Shown: positions 4,468 to 54,317 of the stretch, piece by piece
How the letters are laid out: each line of letters opens with the position of its first letter
How positions within the stretch are numbered: the stretch's first letter is position 1
Source of the DNA: a virus
Lineage: Duplodnaviria > Heunggongvirae > Uroviricota > Caudoviricetes
Strand: one strand, 5' to 3'
Virus record (IMG/VR): IMGVR_UViG_3300021387_001267
Coordinates: 1-64,000 of that record
Length of the DNA stretch: 64,000 nt
Position numbers and translations under genes: made by a program
Notes under the pieces: model-generated
The model's database searches: none
The model's input: only the letters and a program-made list of their open reading frames with translations
What the model was told of the DNA's origin: nothing

Positions 4468-4601
4468 AATAGATTCTCCTTTCAATTTTTCCAAAAGATT
4501 CTTTTACTTACTATAGTCTCCATAATAGACCTTGCAGATTTTGTGAGAGGCCGAATGAAAAGAGAAGGGCCGTCGTAAAACAGCCCTTTGAATTCGATAG
4601 G

Positions 4602-4754: not shown

Positions 4755-4831
4755 AAACAGCCTCCTCTTATAATAGATTGACGTCTCTTTCAACGTCTCT
4801 ATTATAAGAGATGCAGAATCTGTGATCTGCC

Positions 4832-5224
4832 CTATTCGATCTCATTAAAATTCTCTTCTTCCCAGAATTCTCGTTTGAGCGGTTTCATTCTAAGCGCCCA
4901 CATGATTTTTCGCAGCGGAACCGTAAAATATAATTGATCCTCATCTGCACATGTTGCAAATGCTTCGAAATATTCTTTAAAGCGCTCGTTCTCCAGAATA
5001 TCATTTGCGATCCATGGGTCAATCGATCCCCACCAGATCGACTTTGTGGCCTCATTAAAATGCTGCTGGACAACCGCCAATCCGATCTCCTCGCCGTCCT
5101 CATTCCAGCCAGTAAATAACGTGCAGCGATTATACATCGGATGATTGCAGCGATAAACTTTTACGCGGTCTTTTTTCAGGTTCAGATTCTCCAAATCTTC
5201 CGGAGCTTTGTAATAATACTTCAT
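4832..5224 (-). CDS. hypothetical protein
   Basis: ORF track 130 aa; weak GAGGAA SD. Confidence 0.45.
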   Translation of the reverse strand: MKYYYKAPEDLENLNLKKDRVKVYRCNHPMYNRCTLFTGWNEDGEEIGLAVVQQHFNEATKSIWWGSIDPWIANDILENERFKEYFEAFATCADEDQLYFTVPLRKIMWALRMKPLKREFWEEENFNEIE

Positions 5225-5476: not shown

Positions 5477-5595
5477 AGTCAATACCTCCATATAATTAGA
5501 TTTAGAATTCATAGATTCCTTCCCAATATATGGATTGTAATTTTTGTGAGAAAAAGAGAGCAGCTGTATGCCGCTCCCCTTTTGAGATGATTCCT

Positions 5596-6003: not shown

Positions 6004-6066
6004 AAATCTGACCTCCTTATAAAAATTCAGGATATCATCCCATTACAGAAGGTGCAGATTATGTGA

Positions 6067-6615: not shown

Positions 6616-6772
6616 CTTTGTCTCCTTTCGAATATAAAAGAAAGGAGCCGCTGTTAAGCTAGCTCCTTTTCGGATAATGTTGCCATAAAAATATACTGAT
6701 TTCCTTTCAGCTCAAAGCTTCCAGATCATAATCAGAATCAGTGCCAGTAGGATAAGCAGAATAAACGTGTTT

Positions 6773-7533: not shown

Positions 7534-7803
7534 TTACTCCTTTTTATAAAAGTCAGATTTCTCTGCATTATAGGAGTTGTGAAAATTACGATCTTTACAT
7601 TGCATATTGCACATCTCGTTATCGAGTTTGCAGAATGGAATATGAGCACCCATGTCCTGCTCCCATTCAACGCTTGGACAATTATTCACAAATTCGACAT
7701 CTGCCCTCTTTTGTTCGAGGTCAATGAGACTTATTTCTTTGCCTTGTTCTTGCACAGAACATAATAGAAGTAACATAATCATCCAGGCTTCGTCATTTGA
7801 CAT
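7534..7803 (-). CDS. hypothetical Cys-containing protein
   Basis: ORF track 89 aa; TGGAGGAT SD. Confidence 0.5.
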   Translation of the reverse strand: MSNDEAWMIMLLLLCSVQEQGKEISLIDLEQKRADVEFVNNCPSVEWEQDMGAHIPFCKLDNEMCNMQCKDRNFHNSYNAEKSDFYKKE

Positions 7804-7825
7804 TAAGAATCCTCCATAAAAATAT

Positions 7826-7850
7826 GAGGACCTGTAAGTTACAAGTCCTC
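7826..7850 (-). terminator. member of the near-identical terminator family GAGGACCTGTAAGTTACAAGTCCTC
   Basis: Other copies at ~17247-17271, ~19197-19224, ~19603-19629, ~30226-30247. Confidence 0.55.
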
Positions 7851-7857
7851 ATGCTCT

Positions 7858-8142: not shown

Positions 8143-8219
8143 GATTCTTCACTCCTTTAATAAAAATATAGTACTCCATTAAAGGAACTGTAATTATTGC
8201 GATTCTTCTTTCTTTTTAT

Positions 8220-16961: not shown

Positions 16962-17017
16962 TTAATTCTCCTCTAAGAGACATTCGTTTAGCCTCCTTAA
17001 AAAAAAAGAAGCCGCTG

Positions 17018-17200
17018 TTAAACGACTTCCTTTTTCCATACTTTTATTATTCTATTACGTTCTGTTAACTCATAAAGTTGTGTATGATCATATAAAGATC
17101 TGTCTTTCTCGTTAATTAGACCTCTTTCAATCATATCGTCCAATGGAGAAAGATAGTTTGTTTTATACAACCGTCCTTCAAATTCATAAATTATATACAT
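17018..17200 (-). CDS. small hypothetical protein
   Basis: ORF track 60 aa; ATGGAGGTGAAG SD inside conserved box. Confidence 0.45.
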   Translation of the reverse strand: MYIIYEFEGRLYKTNYLSPLDDMIERGLINEKDRSLYDHTQLYELTERNRIIKVWKKEVV

Positions 17201-17220
17201 AAATCTTCACCTCCATTAAA

Positions 17221-17271
17221 GGAGCTGTAAAACTTGCGAAAAGTAAGAAGACCTGTAAATTACAAGTCCTC
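17221..17271 (-). promoter_or_regulatory. representative copy of the conserved intergenic module (terminator hairpin GAAGACCTGTAAATTACAAGTCCTC, T-run, box TTTTCGCAAGTTTTACAG, SD hairpin CTCCtttaatGGAGGTG)
   Basis: More than 30 copies across 900-46650; see findings. Confidence 0.6.
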
Positions 17272-17273
17272 TT

Positions 17274-17573: not shown

Positions 17574-17625
17574 GTTTTCTCCTTTCTGAAATATCTTCAT
17601 TAGAGAAGCTGTAATTCTTGCGAAA

Positions 17626-19086: not shown

Positions 19087-19231
19087 TTTATTAAATCCTC
19101 CATTCATTTAATTCATTACGGATCACTTTTTAGTACGGCCCTCTTCATTTCATTCAGAGAGACCGCCTTCGATATGCCTTTTCAGATAAAAAATTTTAGA
19201 GGGCATGTAAGTTACAAGTCCTCTTGTCGGA

Positions 19232-19543: not shown

Positions 19544-19574
19544 TACATTCTCCTTTCTGGAATATCTCCATTAA

Positions 19575-19629
19575 GGAAGCTGTTGAAATTGCGAAAAATT
19601 TTAGAGGACCTGTAAGTTACAGATCCTCT
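19575..19629 (-). promoter_or_regulatory. conserved intergenic module copy (terminator AGAGGACCTGTAAGTTACAGATCCTCT, box TTTTTCGCAATTTCAACAG, CTTCCTTAATGGAG)
   Basis: Same architecture as 17221..17271. Confidence 0.6.
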
Positions 19630-19835
19630 TTATTTGGAGTTGTAAATACTCCAGCCATTCCAGCTTCAAATAGTATTCTCATGCCTTCATTGTTTCGTCT
19701 TTCCTGCTCTTTAAGATCGTCCTTATACATTTTTTCCCATTTTTTAGCTTCTTTAAGTTCGTCCTTTAAACGTCTGTTTTCCAAAACAATATCTGCCATT
19801 GTAAGAATAAATTCTTCAGCCTCGTATGTGTTCAT
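19617..19835 (-). CDS. hypothetical coiled-coil protein
   Basis: ORF track 72 aa; AGGAGGTGAAT SD in hairpin CCTCCTtagtAGGAGG. Confidence 0.5.
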   Translation of the reverse strand: MNTYEAEEFILTMADIVLENRRLKDELKEAKKWEKMYKDDLKEQERRNNEGMRILFEAGMAGVFTTPNKEDL

Positions 19836-19876
19836 TTTTATTCACCTCCTACTAAGGAGGCTGTAATTATTGCGAA

Positions 19877-29055: not shown

Positions 29056-29096
29056 TTTCGCCTCCTTCTATTAAGAAGGCTGTAATTATTGCGATC

Positions 29097-30199: not shown

Positions 30200-30254
30200 A
30201 TATTCTCCTTTCAAAAAATATAAAAGAGCCTGCGAATTACAAGCTCCTTTATGC

Positions 30255-30554: not shown

Positions 30555-30598
30555 AAACATTACCTCCATAATTTAATAATCTTCTATTATGGAAGTTG

Positions 30599-30955
30599 TT
30601 AATTTTGCGATCCTAATTCTTCTTCTGTTTCCTGCTGTGCCAACATATTATTATCACTGACATCGCAGTTTTCCAAAATACTCCAGAGTTCCGGTGCGAG
30701 CTTTGACTTCTTATTATTCTGCACAAGCTCGTTGATCTGCCCTCTTAGCATCAGATACTTTGTTTTCCAATAGCTCTTAGCGCTGTCTGTTCGGATATGA
30801 GGCATCGTGAGATCAAATATCATACGATACTCTTCTTCCGAAAGACCGAATCGGCGCTTGATTATACCAACAGTTTTTGATGGATTCTTCAGAATATAAT
30901 CCATGACAGCATTTATAGTTTTAATTTCATCAGGATCGAGAAGTGTCAGATTCAT
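30599..30955 (-). CDS. hypothetical protein
   Basis: ORF track 118 aa. Confidence 0.5.
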   Translation of the reverse strand: MNLTLLDPDEIKTINAVMDYILKNPSKTVGIIKRRFGLSEEEYRMIFDLTMPHIRTDSAKSYWKTKYLMLRGQINELVQNNKKSKLAPELWSILENCDVSDNNMLAQQETEEELGSQN

Positions 30956-32891: not shown

Positions 32892-33152
32892 TTACAACGC
32901 GCTCCAATTCATTGGCATCTGTCCTGTAATCTCCAGCGGGTTCAGGCCGAAATGGTCGGCGATCTTACGGACAAGATTCGCAGACGGGAGTCTCTTGCCC
33001 AGTTCATATGCACTCATGGTCGGCTGGTCAATACCAACCTTCTTCCCAAAAGCCTCCTGGGAGTATCCCATCTGTACTCTCATTCCGTACAGATTCCGAC
33101 CGGTTTTCCGATCAATAACCAGAACCTCGTTGTTGTACTTTGACATAGACAT
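32892..33152 (-). CDS. XRE/Cro-CI family HTH transcriptional regulator
   Basis: ORF track 86 aa; LYGMRVQMGYSQEAFGKKVGIDQPTMSAYELGKRLPSANLVRKIADHFGLNPLEI is a classic HTH_3 pattern. Confidence 0.65.
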   Translation of the reverse strand: MSMSKYNNEVLVIDRKTGRNLYGMRVQMGYSQEAFGKKVGIDQPTMSAYELGKRLPSANLVRKIADHFGLNPLEITGQMPMNWSAL

Positions 33153-33242
33153 AATAAATACCTCCTATAATGAATTAATAAAGTTCTTTCTTCTTCACTA
33201 TAGGAGGTGCAATTTTTGTGATTCTGTTATTTAATCAAGCAA

Positions 33243-33864: not shown

Positions 33865-33974
33865 GATAGAATCCTCCTTAATAATATTATTCCCATTATA
33901 TGAAATGCAGTTTTTGTGATTCATTTAATACAGGAATAACAGAAGCAGACTGTAATAGCCTGCTTCCATTGTAC

Positions 33975-34343
33975 TTACTTGAGAAGCCCCATGTCTGCGA
34001 GTACTTCGCCGCGGGATTCACCGTTCTTTACTCGGTGTTCAATCTCCAGAAGTTCCCTGCTGGTGAGCTCTCTGCGAAGCTTCCACCAGTGTCCCTCTAC
34101 AGGATCCCACATCTCGGTCTTCCGGTGATTATCGTCAGCCCGTCTTGCGCGTCTCTTGCTGGCCATCTTTACAACTTCGACGGCCGCAGGGACCGCAACA
34201 GATCCAACCGCGATAACAGTTTCCTTGTTTTCCTTAATGATCTCCCATTTTTCGGAACACCAGGCTTTCGCATCTGCCCAGGTCTCCTTCAGAGTTCTCT
34301 TTCTGGGATTTCCATTCTCATCCACATAAACAACGTTACCCAT
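33975..34343 (-). CDS. hypothetical protein
   Basis: ORF track 122 aa; AAAGGAGAC SD. Confidence 0.5.
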   Translation of the reverse strand: MGNVVYVDENGNPRKRTLKETWADAKAWCSEKWEIIKENKETVIAVGSVAVPAAVEVVKMASKRRARRADDNHRKTEMWDPVEGHWWKLRRELTSRELLEIEHRVKNGESRGEVLADMGLLK

Positions 34344-34455
34344 TTTTAAAGTCTCCTTTCAGATATAAATATTTGATTTCCCATTAAATGCATTGCAGTT
34401 TTTGTGAAAAAAAGAAAGCGACTGTAGAAGCCGCCTTCTTCGAGGAGTAGAGGGA

Positions 34456-34746
34456 TTAATTATCGTTATTCTTTTCTTTCCTATACTCGCGGAGTCCAAA
34501 CTGTATGGTATCAATAAGTATTGCCAGGCCAACTCCGCAGCACCCAACGCTGAGCATCGTGCGCCATTCGGATCCGTACCACCATTGTAGATACTCGGAA
34601 TAGGAAAATCCGAAATGACCCCAAATTTTGTCATACCATTCGGATAATCCAAATCCGTAATAAATTCCAAGAAATACGGCTTCGATCGCAATAATTACAG
34701 CAGTAATCTGCAGTTTTTCCTTTACGTTCTTCATGATGTTTTCCAT
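34456..34746 (-). CDS. membrane protein (3 predicted TM)
   Basis: ORF track 96 aa; AAAGGAGATAAT SD. Confidence 0.5.
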   Translation of the reverse strand: MENIMKNVKEKLQITAVIIAIEAVFLGIYYGFGLSEWYDKIWGHFGFSYSEYLQWWYGSEWRTMLSVGCCGVGLAILIDTIQFGLREYRKEKNNDN

Positions 34747-34875
34747 TGTATTATCTCCTTTTCTAGTAAGTTTTAGATCTTATTTTGATCCATTCTCCTC
34801 ACTATAAAAGGTGTAATTTTTGTGAGACAAAAAAAATAATAGCTGTTAAAATAGAGAAAATGTACTATTTTTCAT

Positions 34876-35007
34876 TTACTCTTCGTCCGGGCTGTGTAGC
34901 TCTCGACAATCATCATTCCCTGCAGTGGCCTTAACCCCCGTCGAAATATCTGATTTCGGAGTCCTAGCTCCGTTCCGGCTACGAATTTCTATTATTTCAT
35001 AATTCAT
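34876..35007 (-). CDS. tiny hypothetical protein (43 aa)
   Basis: ORF track 34876..35067; start MNYEIIEI. Confidence 0.25.
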   Translation of the reverse strand: MNYEIIEIRSRNGARTPKSDISTGVKATAGNDDCRELHSPDEE

Positions 35008-35063
35008 TCTCTCTCCAATATATAAATTGCAGATTCTGTGAAAAAAGAAAGCCCGTGTAAATA

Positions 35064-35279
35064 TCACGAGCTTTTGCAGATATCTTCTGGCGGTTTTATT
35101 CCGTATTTTGCGTATACAAGTTCCAAAAGAGATGTCATATCATCCGGTGTATAGCCTTGCGTCTTTATGCCAATTGCCGAAAGCCTGATCAACATATCAG
35201 GTGCTTTAACTGCCATATCGTTCATCCACTCGCAAAACTCATCTGCCAGGGCGTTCATTTTGGTTTTTGTAATTGCCAT
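35064..35279 (-). CDS. hypothetical protein
   Basis: ORF track 71 aa; AAAGGAGGTTTTAAAT SD. Confidence 0.5.
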   Translation of the reverse strand: MAITKTKMNALADEFCEWMNDMAVKAPDMLIRLSAIGIKTQGYTPDDMTSLLELVYAKYGIKPPEDICKSS

Positions 35280-35350
35280 ATTTAAAACCTCCTTTTTGTT
35301 TCTATTATAAAGAATGCAAAAATTGCGAAAAAAAAAAGAAAGACCGGTTA

Positions 35351-35623
35351 TTAAGCCGGCCCTCTTTCAATTCCGTATGTGTATATATAACCGTTTTTAT
35401 CTTCTTTGCTCGGCGTGTACCACTCGAAAATATTATTAGTATAATAAACTGGAGGAAATGGCGTCTCAACTCTATAAACGTTTTTAATAAATGTAATTGC
35501 CATCTTTATAGAGTCAAAGGATCCACAATATTCGCTATCAGAAAATAATAGTATTCCGGTAGTTTCGCCTTCTTCAAAGTATACTTTATAGCGTAATCTT
35601 TTTACAATATACACATATATCAT
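35351..35623 (-). CDS. hypothetical protein (start may be the GTG at 35614)
   Basis: ORF track 35351..35641 (GTG); ATG abuts the AAGGAG SD, whereas the GTG 9 nt further on has ideal spacing. Confidence 0.45.
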   Translation of the reverse strand: MIYVYIVKRLRYKVYFEEGETTGILLFSDSEYCGSFDSIKMAITFIKNVYRVETPFPPVYYTNNIFEWYTPSKEDKNGYIYTYGIERGPA

Positions 35624-35704
35624 CTCCTTTCCATTAAGCACCTTGTAAAATCGGTGAAAAAAGAAGCGACTGTAAAAGCCGCCTTCTTCTGATCCGTAAG
35701 TGGA

Positions 35705-36067
35705 TCACGCTTTCTTCAGGAAAAACTCCACCGTGGTTCCATTGTTGAGTTCTGCCGAGAAATTGTACTCAGGTCCGATAAAGAACCGTTTAATCGGCGT
35801 CATAAGCGGCCGGTTCTTCTTCCAGCGATCATTGATACGATCGATATACGGCTGAGTGAGGGCCCGAATATAAGTAACGTACTCGCCGTTCATGTCGTCC
35901 CCATCATCTGGGCCATCATAATTGGCATTCCATTTCTCATAATTCGGATTCACAGCATCGCAGTACTCGTTGTATACCCGCATGAAATCTCTTTCGGTCG
36001 CTGACTTGAACAGCGGATTCGGTTCCTTTCCATTGTACCTGAATTCAACATAATAGGTATCGCTCAT
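35705..36067 (-). CDS. hypothetical protein
   Basis: ORF track 120 aa; AAGGAGGTAAC SD. Confidence 0.5.
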   Translation of the reverse strand: MSDTYYVEFRYNGKEPNPLFKSATERDFMRVYNEYCDAVNPNYEKWNANYDGPDDGDDMNGEYVTYIRALTQPYIDRINDRWKKNRPLMTPIKRFFIGPEYNFSAELNNGTTVEFFLKKA

Positions 36068-36135
36068 TTTTGTTACCTCCTTAAAAATATAGTTTTTCCA
36101 CTAAATGCAGTGTAAATTTTGTGATTCTAATAAAA

Positions 36136-36156
36136 AGAGACCCATTGCAGGTCTCT
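36136..36156 (-). terminator. terminator hairpin AGAGACCCATTGCAGGTCTCT (identical copy at ~36503-36523)
   Basis: Perfect 8-bp stem with A-run / T-run flanks. Confidence 0.55.
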
Positions 36157-36441
36157 TTATAGATACGCTGGAATAAGTATTGGTATGTCATCCATCATAT
36201 CGCACTTTCCAAACACAGTCCATCCTTCAATGAAATCTCGTGCGTCGGCCTCCGGTATGTCGAACTCATATGCAACAAATTCCGAGGGATATGTTTCTCC
36301 GGTTTTTAGATTTACAGCAGTCGTATGCATATACGTCTTTACCGATTTTTGTCCCGTCGGAAGCATAAGGTCGTTCGAGCCATATAGCTTCACAAAATGC
36401 TCATGGTAGGCTGTGCGATGATGCAGAATTCTGAATATCAT
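36157..36441 (-). CDS. hypothetical protein
   Basis: ORF track 36157..36447; start MIFRIL with AAGGAGGAT SD; terminator AGAGACCCATTGCAGGTCTCT directly downstream. Confidence 0.5.
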   Translation of the reverse strand: MIFRILHHRTAYHEHFVKLYGSNDLMLPTGQKSVKTYMHTTAVNLKTGETYPSEFVAYEFDIPEADARDFIEGWTVFGKCDMMDDIPILIPAYL

Positions 36442-36543
36442 TACCATATCCTCCTTATAGTTTCTTCACTATACGAAGTGCAATTCATGCGATTGCGTAA
36501 AAAGAGACCCATTGCAGGTCTCTAAAGCGCTTACTTTATCGAA

Positions 36544-36747
36544 TTACGCAGTTTTGTTATCTGAGTTCTTTCCGGTGCCGATGAACGCGTCATATAGTCT
36601 GTCTCCAATATTTAGTTTATCAGCAAGTTCCTTCACCAGCTCAGTGGTAAAGATCCCTGCTCCAAACAAACGGATCAACAGATTCTGCATCCAGAACGGC
36701 AGTTTGTAAAAACGGTTTGAATTCAGAAGCTTTTCAAATGCTTTCAT
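36544..36747 (-). CDS. hypothetical protein
   Basis: ORF track 67 aa; identical terminator copy downstream. Confidence 0.5.
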   Translation of the reverse strand: MKAFEKLLNSNRFYKLPFWMQNLLIRLFGAGIFTTELVKELADKLNIGDRLYDAFIGTGKNSDNKTA

Positions 36748-36853
36748 TTTGATTTTCCTTTCGATTGATGTAAGCTTTACGCTCCATTATATAAACTGCA
36801 ATTTCGGTGAAAGAGATAGTCCGTGCAATTCACACAGACTATCTGAAAGAATT

Positions 36854-37069
36854 TTAACTGAGCTCTTGAGTCTGATACCATTTTTTAAACAATTCTTCTG
36901 GGTCCATGCCGCCGACAAGACGAACGATCCGGTGCCATTTCTTTGGCAGATAAAACTTGAAATTTACCAAGTTTTCACCATCTTTACCAACAACGTCGGA
37001 TTTTTCGTATGTTTCACCCTCAGCATGCTTGGCCATAATTTTCATTGCTTCAATTTCTCTGAATGTCAT
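36854..37069 (-). CDS. hypothetical protein
   Basis: ORF track 71 aa; AAAGGAGGCAATAAAT SD. Confidence 0.5.
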   Translation of the reverse strand: MTFREIEAMKIMAKHAEGETYEKSDVVGKDGENLVNFKFYLPKKWHRIVRLVGGMDPEELFKKWYQTQELS

Positions 37070-37168
37070 ATTTATTGCCTCCTTTAATTATAATAATCCT
37101 TTCCATTAAAACAGATGTAATTTTTGTGAAGTTAAAAAGAAAATAGTTGTAAAAGAAGAGAGCCGCTG

Positions 37169-37354
37169 TCAGCAGCGCTCCTTCCTGAAGAATCCAAGCA
37201 TGTATACGATTGTCACTATGATGGCAATGCAAATCATGTTGTATCCCATTTTGCCGATAATATCTACAATCACCGGGCGGTACATTTCTGCGTAGTGTCC
37301 GATAACGCCCTGGATCATGATAATTACCATTTTAATAAATCCATTATTCAACAT
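37169..37354 (-). CDS. small 2-TM membrane protein (61 aa)
   Basis: ORF track 37169..37474; start MLNNGF with TGGAGGAAAAAG SD; the track's N-terminal extension covers the conserved box. Confidence 0.45.
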   Translation of the reverse strand: MLNNGFIKMVIIMIQGVIGHYAEMYRPVIVDIIGKMGYNMICIAIIVTIVYMLGFFRKERC

Positions 37355-37470
37355 TTCTTTTTCCTCCATATAGTAAAGTTTAATTTGCTTATTATCTTCA
37401 CTATAGGAGCTGTATTTTCTGTGATCACAAATAAAAAAGGAAGACTCTGCAGAAATCTTCCTTATGCGAC

Positions 37471-37683
37471 TCACTCTTCGTAATAGTCGTAATCATCGTC
37501 ATATTCTGCAGGATCCTCCGGAAAGGCAATATCCCATCCAATAAAGCCCATCAATACGGCTGCTGCCATACTTGCAAGATCAAAGCCGACGAAATAAGTA
37601 ATCGCCACAAAGCCAAAAATGGCTATAACAAGCATTGCTATTCCGCTAAAAAGTCTGATCTTTTCAATATCGCGTTTTGTCAT
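37471..37683 (-). CDS. small 2-TM membrane protein with acidic tail
   Basis: ORF track 70 aa; CAGGAGGTTTAATC SD. Confidence 0.5.
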   Translation of the reverse strand: MTKRDIEKIRLFSGIAMLVIAIFGFVAITYFVGFDLASMAAAVLMGFIGWDIAFPEDPAEYDDDYDYYEE

Positions 37684-37776
37684 TTTGATTAAACCTCCTG
37701 TGTTTTTAATTCCTTTCCAATATATAAGTTGTAAAATTGATGAAAAAAGAGAGCCGTTGTAGACTCTCTTTTCGAA

Positions 37777-38286
37777 TTAATCTCCGACATAGTTCCAAAG
37801 ATTACCAAAATATTCGCGAGCTTCTTGATAGGTTTCTTCATCTATCAATTTGTCGCTTAACGCATGCCGAAATGCGTCATATGCGGCCATCTGAATTGGG
37901 TAAGTATTATACTTCTCCTCAAACTCAGCGTACATCTTACTGTAATCTTTTGTAGGATCAATCGGAACTTTAATCCTCAACTTCTTATCAATATCAATTC
38001 CACCTGTTAAGAAATAAATGTTTTGAGTTACATTTTGGACAACGAGGCCGGTTTGTTTTAAAACTGCCTGAAGAACATAAGGCTTGGTCTTATACAATAA
38101 GCCTGTAGTACGGTCATCTTTGCTTTTCGGAACCAATAGTTTCGGATAGCCGAAAAACTCGAAATTATAGCTAAAATAGTCAGTTATTGCATTAATCCAA
38201 GTAGTTTGTTCTTCGTTTGTCTTATGCGTTACCAAACACCACCATACGCGTCCATCTTCTTGTAATTTAAAATTAGCTTCATTCAT
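37777..38286 (-). CDS. hypothetical protein
   Basis: ORF track 169 aa; AAAGGAGAATAAAC SD after conserved box. Confidence 0.5.
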   Translation of the reverse strand: MNEANFKLQEDGRVWWCLVTHKTNEEQTTWINAITDYFSYNFEFFGYPKLLVPKSKDDRTTGLLYKTKPYVLQAVLKQTGLVVQNVTQNIYFLTGGIDIDKKLRIKVPIDPTKDYSKMYAEFEEKYNTYPIQMAAYDAFRHALSDKLIDEETYQEAREYFGNLWNYVGD

Positions 38287-38300
38287 TGTTTATTCTCCTT

Positions 38301-38365
38301 TCTGGAATATCTCCATTAAAGAAACTGCAGAATACGTGAAAAAAAAGAAGACGCAGTTTTTACGT
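38301..38365 (-). promoter_or_regulatory. conserved intergenic module copy (terminator AAGAAGACGTAAAAACTGCGTCTTCTT, T8, CACGTATTCTGCAG, TTTCTTTAATGGAGATATTCCAGAAAGGAG)
   Basis: Same architecture. Confidence 0.6.
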
Positions 38366-38369
38366 CTTC

Positions 38370-38621
38370 TTAAAGGCCCCTCTTAATATAACGCCGTATG
38401 TCATCTGCAACACAAATCGGCCATAAGCACCATAGTATAATGGCAATCACGCATATGATAAGAACGAAAGGCGACCACAGATTTTCGTTGAGTCCTTTGT
38501 CATTGAACTCTTTTCTTATATCTTTTGTGATTGTGTCCGTGAACTCATGATATGATTGCACCGCATATACTATTGCCCCGATAGCGTACAGAATAATAGA
38601 CATTAAAGTATTAGTATTCAT
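38370..38621 (-). CDS. small 2-TM membrane protein
   Basis: ORF track 83 aa; GGAGGTG SD within hairpin CCTCtatagtGGAGG. Confidence 0.5.
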   Translation of the reverse strand: MNTNTLMSIILYAIGAIVYAVQSYHEFTDTITKDIRKEFNDKGLNENLWSPFVLIICVIAIILWCLWPICVADDIRRYIKRGL

Positions 38622-38674
38622 TTCAACACCTCCACTATAGAGGATGCAATTTTTGTGAAAAAGAGACTAGCTGT

Positions 38675-38995
38675 TTAAACTAGCTCTTTATAGAGTATAA
38701 TTGGCTCTGGCTCTTCAAACCAAGGATCTCCAGCATTTAGTCTGATCTTGATGATCTGAAATGCTGCATACTGAATCGGCTTCCCTCGACGATCCGTACA
38801 GCTATTTGTGCAATACACATACCTGGAATGACGTTCAATCTCATCCTCATGCCAGCATTCAAACAATTGCTGCTTGAGAACATTGATTGCTTTCCGATGG
38901 TCTGTGTATACACCAAGCGTCCGTACATTGTCTTTTGGTCCGAACCCATGCGCATCAGACATCTGATACAAATATGTGTACTTGGCTTTTGCCAT
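38675..38995 (-). CDS. hypothetical protein
   Basis: ORF track 106 aa. Confidence 0.5.
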   Translation of the reverse strand: MAKAKYTYLYQMSDAHGFGPKDNVRTLGVYTDHRKAINVLKQQLFECWHEDEIERHSRYVYCTNSCTDRRGKPIQYAAFQIIKIRLNAGDPWFEEPEPIILYKELV

Positions 38996-39053
38996 TGTTC
39001 ATCACCTCATTAATTAGGTTGCAAAAATCGTGAAAAAAGAAGCTCGCTGTATT

Positions 39054-39383
39054 TCAAGCGAGTTCTTCTTTATCTATGGCTTTTGCTATGGGGTCTGCCG
39101 TAAATCCAAAGCATATCCAATCTCCAAATACGTCAATTACATACAGATAAGCATAGCCATACTCGTGCCTGACGATTACATTACCCCGTGAAGCAGTTGT
39201 GACATCGGAGAACCATGGGTCCCATGCCTTAACAGCATCCCCATAAGTTCTTGCTTGTCTAAGGCGAGATCTCCATCCATCAATATCTCCAACATAGTGC
39301 CACGGTCTGACATAAACATCGCCGGTAACCATTCTGGCCCCTGCCTTTGCAAAGACGCTCGAATTAAGATTTACACTACTCAT
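39054..39383 (-). CDS. hypothetical protein
   Basis: ORF track 109 aa; TGGAGGTAAATC SD. Confidence 0.5.
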   Translation of the reverse strand: MSSVNLNSSVFAKAGARMVTGDVYVRPWHYVGDIDGWRSRLRQARTYGDAVKAWDPWFSDVTTASRGNVIVRHEYGYAYLYVIDVFGDWICFGFTADPIAKAIDKEELA

Positions 39384-39451
39384 AGATTTACCTCCATAGT
39401 TTTATTTCTATCACAGAGGTTGTAATTTTTATGAAAAAAAGAAACTAGCTG

Positions 39452-39823
39452 TTAAGCTAGTCCTTTTTCTCTTGTGTATTGGTTTAGACTATTGAGGAGC
39501 ATTTGAAATGCTTTTGCAGCACTGACGCCGCCATAGACCTTATTTTTATGTCCATAAAGTCCAAAAACTTCAAGAAGATCCATTACTGCACCTTCCGAAT
39601 AGCAGTTCTCACGCGCTTTTCCTATGTGCTTCCCATTACTGTGCTTAAATATAATAGTAATGCCGCCATCTTCGTAATACGCATGATACGGAATCTCATA
39701 GCATTTAAGGGTGTCTTCAAGTTTCCGGATTTCATAAAAGCCTTCGTATGCTTTGCCTTTTTTCTTGCTGCGTACAAATTCCCACATTTCATCGCTCCGT
39801 CTAAATATCAATTCTTTGGTCAT
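39452..39823 (-). CDS. hypothetical protein
   Basis: ORF track 123 aa; TAGGAGGTGTATTTTA SD. Confidence 0.5.
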   Translation of the reverse strand: MTKELIFRRSDEMWEFVRSKKKGKAYEGFYEIRKLEDTLKCYEIPYHAYYEDGGITIIFKHSNGKHIGKARENCYSEGAVMDLLEVFGLYGHKNKVYGGVSAAKAFQMLLNSLNQYTREKGLA

Positions 39824-39871
39824 TAAAATACACCTCCTATAATATAAGGTGTATTTTTTGCGAAAGCATGG

Positions 39872-40189
39872 TTACCCTCTCATCTGGCTCAGCTTCCAGA
39901 AGAATATCCGGTGCTGATACCAAAGTTCAGGAGGTATACTACTCCCCTCAACTGTGACAAACCGAAGAAGATTCCGGTCTATCGAATTCGCGCATTCCTC
40001 AATCATAGTAATATTTCGAATCAGGTCTGCTCTGCGAATACCATCTCGTGAGGTTACATCTCCTCTTCCATCCCAGCCGTCAGACTTTTCATACTGAGAT
40101 TTCCAGGTCTCGTACTGATAACAAAACTGTTGCAGTTCACGGAAGCGATGTATACCCAGGTCATATTGAGTTTTTCGTTTAGTCGCCAT
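39872..40189 (-). CDS. hypothetical protein
   Basis: ORF track 105 aa; overlaps the upstream HTH gene by ~11 nt. Confidence 0.45.
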   Translation of the reverse strand: MATKRKTQYDLGIHRFRELQQFCYQYETWKSQYEKSDGWDGRGDVTSRDGIRRADLIRNITMIEECANSIDRNLLRFVTVEGSSIPPELWYQHRIFFWKLSQMRG

Positions 40190-40451
40190 CGTGTTGCCCC
40201 GTCGGAAGACCTAAAATATAACGAAGGTCCTGATTCGAAACATTTGCCATACGTAGGCAATTGGCAATAATTGAGAGTGGTGCCCGTCTAAAATATTCCA
40301 CCTTTCTGCGATAACGCCAAAGACTCGAAGGATTACACCCGGCTTTTTCAGCCAAGTACTCCATAGATTTCCGATTCGATCTGAGGTATTCATGGAGTAC
40401 GGCATCGAACCGATCCATGCGTTTCTCTTCGTCTGAAAATACATTTTTCAT
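40179..40451 (-). CDS. HTH DNA-binding protein
   Basis: ORF track 40179..40505; start MKNVFSDEE with AAAGGAGAT SD; SMEYLAEKAGCNPSSLWRYRRK fits a helix-turn-helix. Confidence 0.5.
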   Translation of the reverse strand: MKNVFSDEEKRMDRFDAVLHEYLRSNRKSMEYLAEKAGCNPSSLWRYRRKVEYFRRAPLSIIANCLRMANVSNQDLRYILGLPTGQHDGD

Positions 40452-40653
40452 TGCTGCAATCTCCTTTTTACAGTTGATTGCTGGCCAGCAGATACAGTAT
40501 ATCACGAGAAAGCTGAAAGTAAATCACGATTGTTACCATTTGTTTCCAGCTTGCAATAAATCATTCAGTCCTGCACGACGAAAAAAGATTGCAATTGTGA
40601 AATATAATTGTGCAGTTAGAATAATCCAACTAAATAAAAAAAAGAAAGGCAGC

Positions 40654-40926
40654 TTATTCGGCTGCCAGTCTTTCCAGGATTTCCATTAATTGGTGCTTAT
40701 TCACATAATGGCAAAGTCCGTTGTCTCGAACATAAATCTTTCCACCAGCATAGAAACTGACCCGACAATAAGGCAGATACAGATCTTTGTATTTGTTCGG
40801 ATGCTCTTTTTTCTTCTTATAGGCATTTCGAGCGCAAACATAAATCTGCTCTTTGTCTTCGAATCCGGTCACCTCATATGGAAGATCCAGTTCTTTCAGT
40901 TTTTCCAACAGCATTTCTTTGTTCAT
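40654..40926 (-). CDS. hypothetical protein (alternative longer form with N-terminal TM starting at 41061)
   Basis: ORF track 40654..41061; internal ATG (MNKEMLLEKL) has TGGAGGTTTTC SD inside a conserved box. Confidence 0.45.
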   Translation of the reverse strand: MNKEMLLEKLKELDLPYEVTGFEDKEQIYVCARNAYKKKKEHPNKYKDLYLPYCRVSFYAGGKIYVRDNGLCHYVNKHQLMEILERLAAE

Positions 40927-41122
40927 ATGAAAACCTCCAATATAAATTTTAGTTCCTATAATAAGAACTGTAATTCCGGTGAAAAACAAAATAATCGTAA
41001 ATATCATGAAAAAGTTACCGACTGGAGCGATTCTGTGAGATTTAAATGAACATTTCATCATTCAATGATCTCCCATTGGCTCCAGCCGGCATGTTTTTAT
41101 GCTATTTTACTTCCGTTTTAAT

Positions 41123-46424: not shown

Positions 46425-46496
46425 TCAGAAAACTCCTTTTCATAAGTTTTAGTTGCTCTTCTATTAAGACAATTGCAAATTTTGCGAATACAAAAA

Positions 46497-46530
46497 AAAT
46501 AACGGGCATCGAACCCGCATCTCCGTTTCC
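46497..46530 (-). terminator. rho-independent terminator whose hairpin mimics a tRNA T-arm (GCGGGTTCGATGCCCG plus T8)
   Basis: Hairpin plus an 8-T run on the minus strand; a tRNA-like D-arm string lies upstream but no cloverleaf closes. Confidence 0.45.
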
Positions 46531-46660
46531 GTTTCCGGTGTGCTACCAAATTGCACCATATCTCTCTATTATAATAATTGCAAATTTTGCGATTATCGTG
46601 ACCTTGCGAAAAAAAATAAGGGCTGTAAATCATACGATCCGCAGCCCTTGCCTTTAAATA

Positions 46661-47560: not shown

Positions 47561-48022
47561 TTACGGCAGCATACACTTATACTTAAACGCGGCAATGTAA
47601 ACTTCCGTTGCGTCACTTGTAGCGCAGCACGCACATAAAATATCAGTCGCCGACCTTGGATAAACACCAACCCCGTCGCAGGTAAAGCAGGTATTGAAAC
47701 GCTTTGCCCGCAGAACTCGGTTGCAGACGTACTGCTCAGTCTTGTCCGGCAGCACGAGAAACCCAAGCATATCCGGCAAAACGTTTCTGATCTGCCACTT
47801 ACCGTTTCCGGCCTTGCTATATGCGTGGTCCTCGATAATTCTTCCGCATCCCCAGGGTCTGATTGATGCGCTATTTTCTAGGTCGACGATCTTTTGTGCA
47901 TTTGCTTTGCCGGAGCTTTTGTAAAGCGGAATTACAATGTCAAGATCCGGAATCTGCCAAACGCCGTACGCGCCATCCGGAATCTCACATTTTCGTGGAA
48001 TTGCAAACTGAGTCACTGTCAT
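47561..48022 (-). CDS. Cys-rich hypothetical protein
   Basis: ORF track 153 aa. Confidence 0.5.
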   Translation of the reverse strand: MTVTQFAIPRKCEIPDGAYGVWQIPDLDIVIPLYKSSGKANAQKIVDLENSASIRPWGCGRIIEDHAYSKAGNGKWQIRNVLPDMLGFLVLPDKTEQYVCNRVLRAKRFNTCFTCDGVGVYPRSATDILCACCATSDATEVYIAAFKYKCMLP

Positions 48023-49971
48023 GGCGTATCACCGGCTTCAATCATAGACCGCAGCTGATCGAATTTTCCGTCAATATACGACTTAATATCAACCGCGTAT
48101 TCCATTGCAATACTTCCGGCATCGCACCAGAATTTATTGTGATTCAAAGCAGTTCGAATCGTAATTTCAGGCTGCTGGAACGGAACAGGCTCAGCCATTT
48201 CATAGACAATTTCGATCTGCGTCGTATCGTCAATTGCCTGATAAAGCTCCTCGGAGATTCTCATAACCGGTACATTATTAACCAGATTCAGGTAAATAAC
48301 CGCGAGATAGTCGCCATAGCTTGTATCGGTATCAGGGTTCGCAATAACGGCGATGTTGCAGACCTGAGAACTTCTTGCCGCTGTGGAATCCGTTCCCGAA
48401 GACGGCACAGGCAATGTGCCAAACGATACTTCCCGATACGAATGGCCTGTTCCGGAGACATTGACGCTTCCGAAATCAGCTTTAACAGCCGAAGCCTTTG
48501 CATAGGTAGATTCCGCGACGCCGGTAATCACGTCGACCGATCCGCCATAAATCGGTGAAACAGCTTCTAGATCACACTCGACATTAAATGGATCCTCTCC
48601 GCGAATGCCATTAATGGTCAGCTTGGTATAGCCCGAAATATCACAGCGGTTTTCATATGGCAGGAAACTGAGATCATCCTCACCGACCGGAATCAGCATT
48701 GGCTGAAGTACCTGATCGGACAATATCAGTCCGTTTGCGATGCGGCAAACAAGTCGCATGCCATCGCCGTGATCTTCAAGAGCGTCTCCATTGGCAAGCT
48801 CCTGAACGGCATCGTTGCTTGAAGCACCAGCAATCCGCCAGCTGATCCCGGTCACCGTATTTACACAGAATATCATTCCGGCAAGAGCAGTGGTGTCGAG
48901 AGCATCATTCACGACATAATAGCAAATGCTGTCTGACGTGCCGCTTACTTTGATTTCTCCGCCGTCAGGCACACGAATCGTAAGCCCGGATGCAATTTCA
49001 TCAGAACCTGTAATCTTCAGTTGATTCTTTTTCACTCCGCCTGGCCACGGCGTTTCATAGCCGTGCAGATCCGGTTCCGGCAGAATATCAATCCGCATTG
49101 ACCGAATTGGGGCGAAGTCTGCTCCGTCCTGAACCTCCACAACAGCTCCGCTAGCATCGTTATAGAACAATCCGATTTTTGTGGACAGAGCATTCTTTGT
49201 CTCGGTCATGTAATACTTGGCATTGTTATGATAAGCCGCGTCCGTAATGTCAACAAGACTTCCGTTTTTCGTTCCGGAAGACCAGGCTTCGGCTTTCAGC
49301 ACCGATTCATCAGCGGATTCCTTGTCATCACGAATGGACAACGCGTAGTATTTCGCATTGTTCTCAAAAGTAATATCGTCTTCTTCGACTTCAGCCCCGC
49401 CCCTTGTTCCAAGAGCATAAGCTTCGGCATCAGAAACAAACTCATCAATTTTATGTGACCGCTGAATGTTCTTCGCAAACTGGGTAATTAAATCATAGTT
49501 GGCGAGAAGAATTCCTTCGTCAGGTTCAATGCCTTCGACAACAGGCAGCGAATGAATTCTAGTGTTGTATTTCTTTAAAATATAACCTTCCTGATCCGTT
49601 AAAACCGCCTGCACAATAAACTGTACCTTACCGCTGTAAAGACAGGCATGCCGCCCGACTTCCCATGTAAACTGAAGCTCGCCATCGACAACGTTAACTT
49701 CCGGGGCAACGTAAATATCACTCTCGCCTCTGGCATTCAGATAAACAATGCGAATAGAAAACGTACTGAGATCAGATCCCTCATAAAACTGAGGTCCTTT
49801 GAAATTCAGATAATTGATTCGCTCATCACTCGTAACACCGAGAAGCTTCTTGTTTGCCGGAATATCAATCGTTCTGAAATCGTGATCGATAACAAGCCAT
49901 GACTTCTCGAAATTCGAATCGCCGACAACTGAAGCTGCCTGAAATAAGTTGTTTAGATCCGGCATTCTCAA
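48019..49971 (-). CDS. tail fibre / receptor-binding protein (N-terminal domain shared with 58991..62335)
   Basis: ORF track 650 aa; the first ~170 aa align residue-by-residue with the 1114-aa fibre (ASVVG..LGVTSDE..QRHACLY..IHSLPVV); beta-rich C-terminal domain. Confidence 0.7.
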   Translation of the reverse strand: MRMPDLNNLFQAASVVGDSNFEKSWLVIDHDFRTIDIPANKKLLGVTSDERINYLNFKGPQFYEGSDLSTFSIRIVYLNARGESDIYVAPEVNVVDGELQFTWEVGRHACLYSGKVQFIVQAVLTDQEGYILKKYNTRIHSLPVVEGIEPDEGILLANYDLITQFAKNIQRSHKIDEFVSDAEAYALGTRGGAEVEEDDITFENNAKYYALSIRDDKESADESVLKAEAWSSGTKNGSLVDITDAAYHNNAKYYMTETKNALSTKIGLFYNDASGAVVEVQDGADFAPIRSMRIDILPEPDLHGYETPWPGGVKKNQLKITGSDEIASGLTIRVPDGGEIKVSGTSDSICYYVVNDALDTTALAGMIFCVNTVTGISWRIAGASSNDAVQELANGDALEDHGDGMRLVCRIANGLILSDQVLQPMLIPVGEDDLSFLPYENRCDISGYTKLTINGIRGEDPFNVECDLEAVSPIYGGSVDVITGVAESTYAKASAVKADFGSVNVSGTGHSYREVSFGTLPVPSSGTDSTAARSSQVCNIAVIANPDTDTSYGDYLAVIYLNLVNNVPVMRISEELYQAIDDTTQIEIVYEMAEPVPFQQPEITIRTALNHNKFWCDAGSIAMEYAVDIKSYIDGKFDQLRSMIEAGDTP

Positions 49972-53075: not shown

Positions 53076-54317
53076 TTATCCATCGTACTCCGTAATATCT
53101 CTCGCAAGGAATCTTACTGCGTAAGGCCTCAGGTCATCGAATACGGCCGTATAGGTTGTGTCTTTGGTCATAGGACCAAGCGGAGGATCCCATCTGATAA
53201 ATGGAAATACTTCAGCGGTTCCTTTGCTTGTGGTCGGAATCGCTGCTGTATAATTCGGAGTCGTGTTATACGGAACAGCGTTAATCGTCTGCAGAGTTCC
53301 GCCGCCATCAGCACTGGCCTTCACGAACATCGCCTTATGAGTCTCTACGACTTCAGTGTAGGTTGCCGTATAAGTCGTAAATCCAGTCAGAGGTACAATC
53401 TGCTTGTCCCAGCCCGCGAAAGTGTAGGTATACCCCGGAACAGCAGGTCTTGTCGGAGTTTCGCCATTGTAAGTCGGAGTGGTTCCGATCGGGACATCAC
53501 GGTCTAATTCCAGCAGACTTCCATCCCAGTTCAGCCATGTAACGTTTGCCTCAGTCAGAACCTCGTGAACATCGGTATACTCTTCGATAGTTCTCGCAAG
53601 GAACTGAACAGTATAAGGTCTGTTATCCTTGAATACCGCAGTATAGGTCGTATTCTTCGTAATCGGTCCGAGCGCAGGTTCCCATCCTTCAAAGGTAATC
53701 TCAGGAGGAACGCCCTTCGTGGACGTAGGATCAGCAGAACCGAAATCCGGAGTTTCGCCGTAGTTTACCATTACGGTCTTAATTGTACCGCCGCCGTCAG
53801 AGGAATCCTTGATGAATGTTGCTGTAACCGTATTTGGAACTTCCTGGAACTGAGCTGTGTAGACTGCGTCTTCGTAAATAACAGTCGGCGAAGGACTCCA
53901 GCCGGTGAAGTTATAGCAATACTGCGTGGTCGAGGGTTTCGTCGGTGTAGTTCCGCTGTACGTAGATTTCGTACCGGCCTGAACTTCTTCCATTTTGATT
54001 ACACTGGAATCATAGTTCAGCCACTGAACCTGAACCATAATCGGAACTTCAGTGAAGGTCGCGGTATAAGTGGTGTCCCCTGTAACCGCCACAACCGAAG
54101 GAGTCCATCCGGCGAATTCGTAACGAACCGTCTGAGTTGCGGGCTTCGTCGGAGTAGGTCCTGCATATCCGGGAATCCCACCTTCCGCTGCTTTGGTATC
54201 TACGTAAAGATCAGATCCATCCCAGTTTTTCCACGTAACTGTGTACTTTGGGATAGTCTTATTCTCATCGAGGTATAGTAAAACTTTTCGTCGATTATCA
54301 AGCAATGACAATCTCAT
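53076..54317 (-). CDS. tail-associated protein with five Listeria-Bacteroides (Flg_new) repeats
   Basis: ORF track 413 aa; repeats ending Y.F.GW.P....TG.TTYTA.F; C-terminal RFLARDITEYDG matches the C-terminus of 56842..58974. Confidence 0.65.
   Translation of the reverse strand: MRLSLLDNRRKVLLYLDENKTIPKYTVTWKNWDGSDLYVDTKAAEGGIPGYAGPTPTKPATQTVRYEFAGWTPSVVAVTGDTTYTATFTEVPIMVQVQWLNYDSSVIKMEEVQAGTKSTYSGTTPTKPSTTQYCYNFTGWSPSPTVIYEDAVYTAQFQEVPNTVTATFIKDSSDGGGTIKTVMVNYGETPDFGSADPTSTKGVPPEITFEGWEPALGPITKNTTYTAVFKDNRPYTVQFLARTIEEYTDVHEVLTEANVTWLNWDGSLLELDRDVPIGTTPTYNGETPTRPAVPGYTYTFAGWDKQIVPLTGFTTYTATYTEVVETHKAMFVKASADGGGTLQTINAVPYNTTPNYTAAIPTTSKGTAEVFPFIRWDPPLGPMTKDTTYTAVFDDLRPYAVRFLARDITEYDG

Follow-up and report, generated by a model that had tools for sequence, protein, structure and literature searches.

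The closest described system is found in phage T4. In the T4 genes e, soc, 49, I-TevI, I-TevII, I-TevIII and segB, as well as in Aeh1 mobE, the 5' part of a hairpin that sequesters the ribosome-binding site (RBS) contains a late promoter, and late transcripts are translated while the longer early and middle ones are not (PMC3014915, PMC2988022). T4 also encodes the translational repressor RegA and the GGAG-specific endoribonuclease RegB, both acting on the Shine-Dalgarno (SD) regions of many early genes (PMC3014915). A literature search for the same promoter-hairpin device in other phages returned only T4 reviews. Here we analysed a stretch of 64,000 nucleotides (nt), positions 1 to 64,000 of the IMG/VR record IMGVR_UViG_3300021387_001267 (hereafter the window), from an uncultured gut phage of the Caudoviricetes, in which a promoter-like motif, called the box, is repeated before small genes and its core is often predicted to pair with the SD of the gene that follows. 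The best reading of these data, to which we give an even chance, is a cis-acting SD masking that depends on the origin of the transcript, of the type described for T4 gene e and I-TevI.

A hidden Markov model (HMM) was built from 22 obvious copies of the box and used in an nhmmer search of the window, columns being counted from the first aligned base. The search returned 34 copies, all located on the minus strand, which is the gene strand, and all aligned without any gap. Column frequencies calculated from 63 non-redundant copies of the window and its relatives described the box as a 32-nt, gapless, strand-specific and promoter-like motif, TCRCAA-N4-TRCA-n-YYYC-TWTAAT-RGRR (by column, T4 C5 R6 Y7 A8 A9 www T13 T14 R15 C16 A17 n Y19 Y20 Y21 C22 T23 W24 T25 A26 A27 T28 R29 G30 R31 R32). 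C5, C16 and T28 were invariant and T4, A17 and T25 nearly so. The hexamer is followed by a purine run of the GGAG, GGGA or GAAG type, with a purine in 63/63 copies at columns 29, 31 and 32 and in 60/63 at column 30. Each box is placed between a terminator or stop codon and the SD and start codon of a gene, and from 33 to 41 kb the layout terminator, box, SD and small open reading frame (ORF) is repeated.

The box also occurred on the gene strand of the related IMG/VR contigs L003-L006, L010, L012, L014 and L016-L018, with L001 and L002 as further related phages that have it, and no copy was found in the relatives L007-L009, L011, L013 and L015 or in any of the 43 loci from metagenome-assembled genomes (MAGs, L026-L068). 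The Band_7 protein of the box-less relatives is about 64% identical; the 43 MAG loci, drawn from a genome collection, carry a Band_7 relative, and such relatives were found in MAGs of Oscillospiraceae, Ruminococcaceae and other Clostridia. Inspection of two box-less loci, the IMG/VR contig L008 and the MAG locus L026, revealed no alternative repeated motif. The fixed motif, the gene-strand placement, the position before SD and start codon and the restriction to a clade suggest that the box is a clade-specific class of phage promoter, a role read from its position and conservation. Its limitation to a subclade, with no copies in the relatives with a 64%-identical Band_7 protein or in the MAG loci, argues for recognition by a phage-encoded, co-evolving factor rather than for a host consensus. 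The box core, CAnCTCCTWT plus hexamer, is similar to the terminal 3' sequence of 16S rRNA (CACCUCCUUU), which makes it complementary to SDs, and the SDs of the window are strong throughout (AAAGGAGGTGA-type). The duplex energy of the promoter cores with a consensus SD showed a mean of -7.2 kcal/mol, compared with -3.3 kcal/mol for random 15-mers of the window.

The focal box covers positions 17211-17239 with its columns 4-32 (nhmmer E = 2.5e-7, gapless alignment) and has column 1 at 17242, the position by which boxes are named hereafter; it lies on the minus strand, as do all boxes and leader hairpins located below. It consists of TCGCAA (17239-17234), TACA (17229-17226), a CTCC tract (17224-17221), the -10-like hexamer TTTAAT (17220-17215) and GGAG (17214-17211). 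On its upstream side, a scan for hairpins with T-runs located the intrinsic terminator hairpin of the preceding gene at 17245-17273 (AAGAGGACTTGTAATTTACAGGTCTTCTT, -14.6 kcal/mol, minus strand), from which ACTTTT leads into the box. On the other side TTTAAT is adjoined by the SD GGAGGTGA (17207-17214, 8 nt, spacer 6) of a 60-aa ORF (17018-17200, ATG at 17200, minus strand). A hairpin was predicted for the RNA at 17201-17235, with a CTCC/GGAG core stem and CA/TG and AAGUUUU/GAAGAUU extensions. This copy folds at -12.6 kcal/mol (z = -2.75 against shuffles), while RNA from column 29 folds at 0 kcal/mol, and the unpaired probability of the SD is 0.18 in read-through RNA and 0.87 in RNA from column 29. 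According to the folding model, the hairpin can only form in RNA begun upstream of the box.

The pairing of promoter cores with their own leaders was then assessed over all copies by fusing columns 12-28 of each copy i to the segment that spans column 29 to start+6 in each copy j. In the window, own combinations returned -9.56 kcal/mol against -7.99 ± 0.35 kcal/mol for exchanged ones (z = -4.5, P = 2e-5), and a duplex-energy version of the comparison returned z = -4.4. The excess held after removal of near-duplicate cassettes (z = -4.6) or of the five best copies (P = 0.004), and was replicated in the divergent relatives L017 and L018 (-9.15 vs -7.29 ± 0.46 kcal/mol, z = -4.0, P = 8e-5). Sixteen window copies gained at least 2 kcal/mol in own-minus-swapped energy, and in 15 of them the predicted structures have the SD as 3' partner. 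Variants of the hexamer are mirrored in the 3' arm (TATAGT/ACTATA, CATAAT/ATTATG), and orthologous leaders differ in both arms, with ATAGT/ACTA in the window and ATTGT/ACAA in L017. The predicted stems have energies between -8 and -27 kcal/mol and z values as low as -4.7, reach 15-20 bp at boxes 33224 and 4828 and at box 9556 of L017, and include contributing G-U pairs at boxes 30613 and 33224. The 5' arm falls on columns 14-28 of the promoter-like motif and extends to columns 4-14 in some copies; it comprises the pyrimidine tract and the TAtAAT-like hexamer and lies upstream of any plausible start site. No Rfam cis-regulatory leader or riboswitch gave a gathering-score match in the window or in L016-L018.

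The strongest hairpin belongs to box 33224 (33160-33208), where the promoter core with its hexamer (ACCTCCTATAGTGAA) pairs with TTCATTATAGGAGGT, a segment containing the distal SD. It folds at -21.8 kcal/mol (z = -4.69), compared with -3.7 kcal/mol (z = +0.83) from column 29 on and with -11.9 kcal/mol for swapped arms (rank 0/32), and its orthologues in L016 (15639) and L017 (9556) retain the pairing through one-sided C->U and G->A changes. Behind it lies the gene of an XRE/HTH_3-like regulator (MSMSKYNNEVLVIDRKTGRNLYGMRVQMGYSQEAFGKKVGIDQPTMSAYE..., minus strand, start at 33152). A long promoter-core/SD hairpin was also predicted at box 30613 (30556-30600, ACTTCCATAAT / ATTATGGAGGT, -13.1 kcal/mol, z = -3.78, rank 0/32) and at box 8205 (8174-8202), in which TTCCTTTAATGGAG pairs with the distal SD TTATTAAAGGAG (-15.4 kcal/mol, z = -2.87); boxes 37427, 34828, 6069, 5552, 4828 and 7594 have hairpins of this kind as well. 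Two boxes with no terminator upstream are predicted to form hairpins, namely box 19878 (19847-19875), with a CCTCCT-tagt-AGGAGG hairpin and an SD adjoining the hexamer (-11.0 kcal/mol, z = -3.13), and box 29097 (29066-29094), with GCCTTCTT-aatag-AAGGAGGC (-10.8 kcal/mol, z = -2.74). Separately, a promoter and leader cassette nearly identical to that of box 33224 was observed before unrelated membrane-protein genes in L017 (6971) and L018 (12390), which suggests that promoter-leader modules may move as units.

The effect of this pairing on the SD was estimated by folding predictions. The leaders of box genes are more structured than those of the 95 other minus-strand genes (z = -1.5 vs -0.15 against shuffles, P = 3e-5), and SD accessibility in folds of the upstream region was 0.29 for box genes and 0.48 for the 95 non-box genes (P = 3e-5). 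The unpaired probability of box-gene SDs was 0.27 in read-through RNA, 0.62 in RNA from column 29 and 0.57 in RNA from column 35, so that removal of the 5' arm in silico opens the RBS. Matched truncation of the non-box genes changed the value from 0.47 to 0.52 only, a gain of 0.05 compared with 0.36 for the box genes (P = 2e-8). In read-through RNA 19 of the 33 box genes (58%) showed an SD accessibility below 0.25, thus placing the SD in the 3' arm of a stable hairpin as in the T4-type device, whereas in RNA from column 29, which is essentially unstructured (mean -2.8 kcal/mol), the share was 6%.

We propose that in about half of the copies the leader may have evolved extra complementarity, by which the promoter core as 5' arm and the gene's own SD region as 3' arm would form a hairpin of 6-20 bp. 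As the 5' arm is located upstream of the start site, the hairpin would arise only in RNA entering from upstream, either by read-through past leaky or absent terminators or within long transcripts of the structural and lysis genes. Read-through RNA with its SD masked would be translationally silent for the gene, and RNA initiated at the gene's own promoter would be devoid of the 5' arm and have an open SD. Since the genes all point the same way, with those for structure and lysis on the upstream side, the masked species could plausibly derive from late or read-through RNA that reaches the small-gene region. Within this scheme we infer a start at or after column 29, the existence of read-through RNA and a difference in translation between the two kinds of RNA.

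The box leaders resemble T4-type masking in having, as a sequence prediction, the SD in the 3' arm, a promoter-like motif at the 5' arm and a cis-acting arrangement that needs no protein (PMC3014915, PMC2988022). In T4 the device concerns a handful of late genes within early and middle transcripts and uses the gp55 late promoter TATAAATA. In the present case a different promoter class would be involved, in phages linked to Clostridia through their Oscillospiraceae-type MAG relatives, at about half of 33 promoters and before small, probably early or accessory genes, and the promoter consensus itself mimics the anti-SD.

The preliminary description of this DNA had proposed a simpler structure, a conserved hairpin of 4-6 bp right after each box whose 3' arm is the SD in most copies, and this observation was confirmed in part. 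The sequences quoted for it are real and all lie on the minus strand. In four of them, CTCCtttaatGGAGGTG (box 17242), CCTCCTtagtAGGAGG (19878), CCTCtatagtGGAGG (38661) and ACACCTtatattatAGGAGGTGT (39866), the true SD forms the 3' arm, while the leader hairpin TTGGAGAATGGATTCTCCAA (box 926) does not include the SD of its gene. The hairpin does not follow the box: motif columns 19-22 supply its 5' arm (CTCC, CCTCC or similar), the TAtAAT-like hexamer forms the loop and the purine run of columns 29-32 makes up the 3' arm. The SD adjoins the hexamer in only 6-8 of the 34 boxes (the compact copies 39866, 39036, 38661, 29097, 19878 and 17242, with 35660 and 35044 marginal), and in the remaining ones the purine run is not the SD of the gene, which occurs 15-45 nt further downstream. 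A stem of at least 4 bp was present in 18/34 copies, compared with 13.6 ± 2.8 expected when 3' halves were exchanged among copies. The minimum free energy (MFE) of columns 14-42 showed no excess over arm-swapped sequences (-3.41 vs -3.27 ± 0.29 kcal/mol, P = 0.32), and the test with 63 copies returned P values of 0.05-0.14. Column tables calculated for three registers over the 63 copies showed every symmetric column pair to be paired as often as independent columns predict, so that the compensatory changes across copies set as a criterion in the preliminary description are absent. The short conserved hairpin as such was rejected, as the arm-swap stem and MFE tests and the column-pair tables were all at chance. 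The other expectation, folding better than shuffled controls, was borne out by the z values reported above for the box-gene leaders and the focal copy.

The position of the transcription start bears on this proposal, although the 5' arm would stay outside the transcript with either plausible site (about column 29 or about 35). Two weak arguments drawn from the sequence would favour a start at about columns 29-31, that is immediately after TAtAAT, over one 7 nt past the hexamer. The SD of the compact class, which makes up 6-8/34 copies in the window and about 40% of the boxes in the L003-L015 set, begins at column 29-30 and would be lost from the genes' own transcripts under a sigma-70-type start, and the tRNA-like RNA behind box 46595 (described below) has its 5' acceptor strand from column 31.

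Promoters of the sigma-70 type have a -10 element, some with a G-rich discriminator, and those of T7-like single-subunit polymerases have TATA at -4 to -1 and purine-rich positions +1 to +6. The box is similar to both in its TAtAaT-like hexamer and invariant purine run, and its long block of fixed geometry is as in phage-specific promoters. A canonical sigma-70/sigma-A promoter was rejected, since TCRCAA lies 13 nt from the hexamer and no TTGACA is present at 16-18 nt. The A conserved at -11 in such promoters, along with T at -7, has its equivalent in 35/63 copies only, with T at this position in 25/63, and matches to the sigma-70 consensus were not enriched in the window over shuffles (59 vs 49 ± 8 and 55 vs 43 ± 6). 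Three further readings were dropped by eye, the sigma-54-like one for the missing GG of the -24 element, the TcdR-like one for the missing conserved -10 at the required spacing, and the AR9-like one for the missing register. A search of large and small ORFs of the 64-kb window with PHROGs and Pfam revealed no phage RNA polymerase or sigma gene.

The relation of the hairpins to terminators was evaluated for the boxes of the window and of related loci. Fourteen of 33 boxes in the window have no upstream terminator and 19 are preceded by one, and the own-minus-swapped energy was -4.3 kcal/mol for the former and +0.4 kcal/mol for the latter (P = 5e-4). The cores of the two groups also differed in their pairing with a consensus SD (-9.8 vs -5.3 kcal/mol, P = 5e-4, with background 15-mers at -3.3 kcal/mol), and a difference in anti-SD-likeness by terminator was found within the TCACAA subfamily as well (P = 0.008). 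Hairpins and terminators might be alternative insulators, an idea kept tentative because the link between a missing terminator and a strong hairpin did not recur when two independent sets of related loci were tested (P = 0.60 and P = 0.55). Early or host-takeover regions of phages can consist of terminator-insulated single-gene cassettes with strong promoters, the host-takeover module of SPO1 being an example. The dense one-strand array of terminator, box, SD and small ORF at 33-41 kb is comparable with these; it differs in a promoter motif that departs from the sigma-A consensus of the host and in the predicted SD-masking hairpin of many units.

The terminator hairpins themselves form repeat families, such as GAGGACYTGTAAKTTACARGTCCTC. 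Members were located at 7816-7852, 17237-17273, 19189-19225, 19594-19630 and 30214-30250, and also at 6636-6681, 17000-17045, 37151-37196 and 39434-39479. As these hairpins are repeated, the terminator-promoter junctions, and not the box alone, are repeated modules.

Several results weigh against masking dependent on transcript origin. Besides the terminator link that failed to recur, about 10 of the 33 copies are without any SD pairing, and a sigma-70-like start about 7 nt past the hexamer would, awkwardly, strip the SD from the own transcripts of the 6-8 compact copies, a difficulty that a start at about column 29 avoids. Promoter activity, start site, polymerase or sigma factor, read-through transcripts and translational effect were moreover all inferred from sequence, and for this reason our confidence goes no further than the level given at the outset. 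Other points on this side would equally fit an explanation that we consider unlikely, namely that the complementarity is a functionless by-product of a polymerase that happens to require a pyrimidine-rich core and a purine-rich initial region, of SDs rich in purines and of AT-rich hexamers facing AT-rich SD flanks, the excess coming from cassette duplication or local inverted-duplication mutations. The short local stem, no better than arm-swapped, lacks covariation. The copy-specific excess is weak in the L003-L015 set (z = -1.7), because nearly every core there is CTCC. Promoter and leader cassettes are seemingly duplicated before unrelated, non-homologous genes, so that copies are not fully independent, and the failed replication of the terminator correlation would fit a by-product as well. 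Against it stands the full-leader excess of own over swapped arms, which is strong, replicated and survives de-duplication, together with the specific choice of the SD as partner in 15/16 cases and the matching of hexamer variants in the 3' arm. The pyrimidine tract, in addition, is dispensable for the motif and absent from many terminator-preceded copies, and is therefore not simply a requirement of the polymerase.

The preliminary description had suggested a global translational control reminiscent of T4 RegA and RegB. On this model the hairpin would be present in the genes' own mRNAs and their RBSs would be common targets of a trans-acting phage factor, such as a repressor like RegA or a GGAG endonuclease like RegB; alternatively, it would serve as a 5' stabiliser. 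SD masking was borne out in silico, beyond shuffles and arm swaps over the whole leader, but the trans control was not, and we regard it as quite improbable. GGAG is the element in common with RegA and RegB, since many copies have GGAG or GGAGG right behind the hexamer and the RGRR run is kept also at boxes where the SD lies elsewhere, and with a start at column 29 the RNAs would begin with GGAG, a conceivable common recognition site. The RGRR is, however, equally explained as promoter and initial transcribed region or as SD. RegA and RegB are trans-acting proteins working on single-stranded sites, a model that leaves unexplained a structure built from the promoter sequence: the 5' arm takes in the promoter's own TRCA, pyrimidine tract and TWTAAT, further upstream there are only terminators and no conserved promoter candidate, and the RNA left from column 29 is, as seen above, nearly free of structure. 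No RegA, RegB, RNase or RNA-binding family was matched among the 118 ORFs of the window (Pfam, with PHROGs also scanned), which covers only part of the genome; the Pfam families found were HTH_3 (three copies), HNH, RadC, holin and DUFs only. A cis-acting device dependent on transcript origin is favoured over trans control because the 5' arm is the promoter itself, so that the hairpin cannot form in own-promoter RNA.

It is also improbable, to a similar degree, that the long stems are RNase III processing sites or pausing and attenuation sites ending upstream transcripts where no terminator exists, the SD being involved only secondarily. Such sites would account for the occurrence of the strongest window hairpins at boxes without a preceding terminator, for the several stems of 15-20 bp and for the U-rich spacers, such as AUUUAUUAUG, that follow some of them. 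However, RNase III would need longer stems than the 4-11 bp that most of them have, the U-rich stretch represents the usual AT-rich spacer between SD and AUG and mostly does not adjoin the stem, the terminator relation was not found in the relatives, and the 3' arm is nearly always the SD, which processing alone does not require. A structure acting at the DNA level, with the inverted repeat at the hexamer as the operator of a dimeric regulator or as a cruciform or hairpin promoter element like those of N4 early promoters, appears very improbable. It would find support in the dyad centred on the hexamer in compact copies (e.g., CCTCCT-TAGT-AGGAGG and CCTTCT-TAAT-AGAAGG) and in the three HTH_3 proteins encoded in the window. 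Yet the centre of symmetry shifts from 25.5 to 26.5 between copies and the loop varies from 4 to about 30 nt, making the repeat unfit for a protein operator; the arm sequences vary while complementarity is kept, the G-U pairs at boxes 30613 and 33224 help only in RNA, and the N4-type hairpin is located upstream of the start and has a 3-nt loop, unlike the box structure.

The remaining boxes are given here by their columns 4-32. Eighteen form a dense run from 33891 to 40982, at 40954-40982, 39835-39863, 39406-39434, 39005-39033, 38630-38658, 38311-38339, 37715-37743, 37396-37424, 37101-37129, 36782-36810, 36464-36492, 36096-36124, 35629-35657, 35300-35328, 35013-35041, 34797-34825, 34379-34407 and 33891-33919. 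Six are located between 895 and 7591 (7563-7591, 6038-6066, 5521-5549, 4797-4825, 4518-4546 and 895-923), two between 17595 and 19594 (19566-19594 and 17595-17623), and two downstream of the holin gene, at 46564-46592 before a tRNA-like small RNA and at 46459-46487 before a 44-aa ORF.

The tRNA-like RNA gene (46494-46565, minus strand) lies directly behind box 46595, between the holin and integrase genes. It matches the Rfam tRNA model at full length with 39.6 bits (gathering score 29, E = 3e-7) but was missed by the whole-window gathering scan, and ARAGORN called no tRNA at this position. The D-arm and the T-arm (GGTTCGAT) are normal, a CCG-GAAA-CGG mini-hairpin replaces the anticodon arm, and the 3' acceptor strand is the U-run of the terminator, with no CCA. 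In the window as in L018, this U-run pairs with the purine-rich 5' end of the RNA. Relatives occur in L016 (about 5039-5140) and L018 (5637-5750), the core being kept in L018 (17.7 bits). A degenerate extra box (ATCGTATGATTTACAGCCCTTATTTT) at 46610-46641 (minus strand), about 45 nt upstream of box 46595, could yield a longer precursor of this RNA.

The preliminary description had also reported that the hairpin context recurs, as TAATGGAGG, where genes abut at two EFITMEE C-termini. Both sites exist, with the exact 20-mer occurring only once, at 24472-24453 (minus strand), and the second site, 26139-26120, differing by one base (GAGTTT...). The context is ACGATGGAGGA and not TAATGGAGG, which is found once in the window. 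These sites are C-termini of paralogues (..EFITMEET*, ..EFITMEE*, ..LEMEET*) with the SD of the next gene embedded in the coding sequence; no box accompanies these ordinary junctions of coupled genes, which are unrelated to it. The minus-strand segment 24141-26139 contains small paralogues with ..MEE(T)* C-termini encoded by ATGGAGGA(A)ACTTAATG or ATGGAGGAGTAAATG, whose stop codon overlaps or abuts the next ATG, and looks, as judged from the sequence, like a translationally coupled tandem paralogue array.

The nearest protein relatives of the phage in a tail protein search were distant, uncultured human-gut phages; no near-DNA match to the window was found in the phage collection searched, and a related-locus search with a 169-aa protein had no hits. 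Nearly all window genes are on the minus strand, where the 5' to 3' order is tail and tail-fibre genes (64-53 kb), endolysin (52004-50382), holin (46999-46661), integrase (44019-42910), a RadC-like gene and about 41 kb of mostly small ORFs with no assigned function. The G+C content is 38-41% in most of the small-gene region (6-44 kb) and about 43-49% in the structural and lysis region (48-64 kb) and at 1-4 kb. Internal repeats are common to tail and tail-fibre genes (49823-49899 vs 62199-62275 and 54854-55153 vs 55987-56286, with others at 53134-53201, 53626-53693, 54049-54116 and 56900-56967). An unannotated 650-aa protein (48019-49971) is probably a second fibre or receptor-binding protein, as its N-terminus resembles that of the 1114-aa tail protein.

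A broader picture, which we put forward as doubtful, would be that of a clade of phages of Oscillospiraceae-type Clostridia with a non-sigma-70 promoter that starts right after TAtAAT, as suggested by the SDs adjoining column 29 and by the 5' strand of the tRNA-like RNA beginning at columns 29-31. Its recognition sequence would be an anti-SD mimic of the 16S 3' end, the translation of dozens of small genes would depend genome-wide on transcript origin, and terminators and masking hairpins would stand in for one another in shielding these genes from read-through out of the co-oriented late operon. The masking device itself is already known from T4; what would be new is its presence in another phage lineage and promoter class, its use at the scale of a promoter family and the anti-SD within the promoter consensus, along with a newly defined clade-specific promoter motif. 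If the masking is real, an anti-SD-like promoter core followed by a complementary SD flank would serve as an annotation rule, marking a transcription unit boundary and a translation that depends on the gene's own promoter. The T4 arrangement of a promoter inside an RBS-masking hairpin would then be no T-even curiosity but a general design, independently arisen in phages of gut Clostridia, where a whole promoter family would use it and the promoter consensus would incorporate it.

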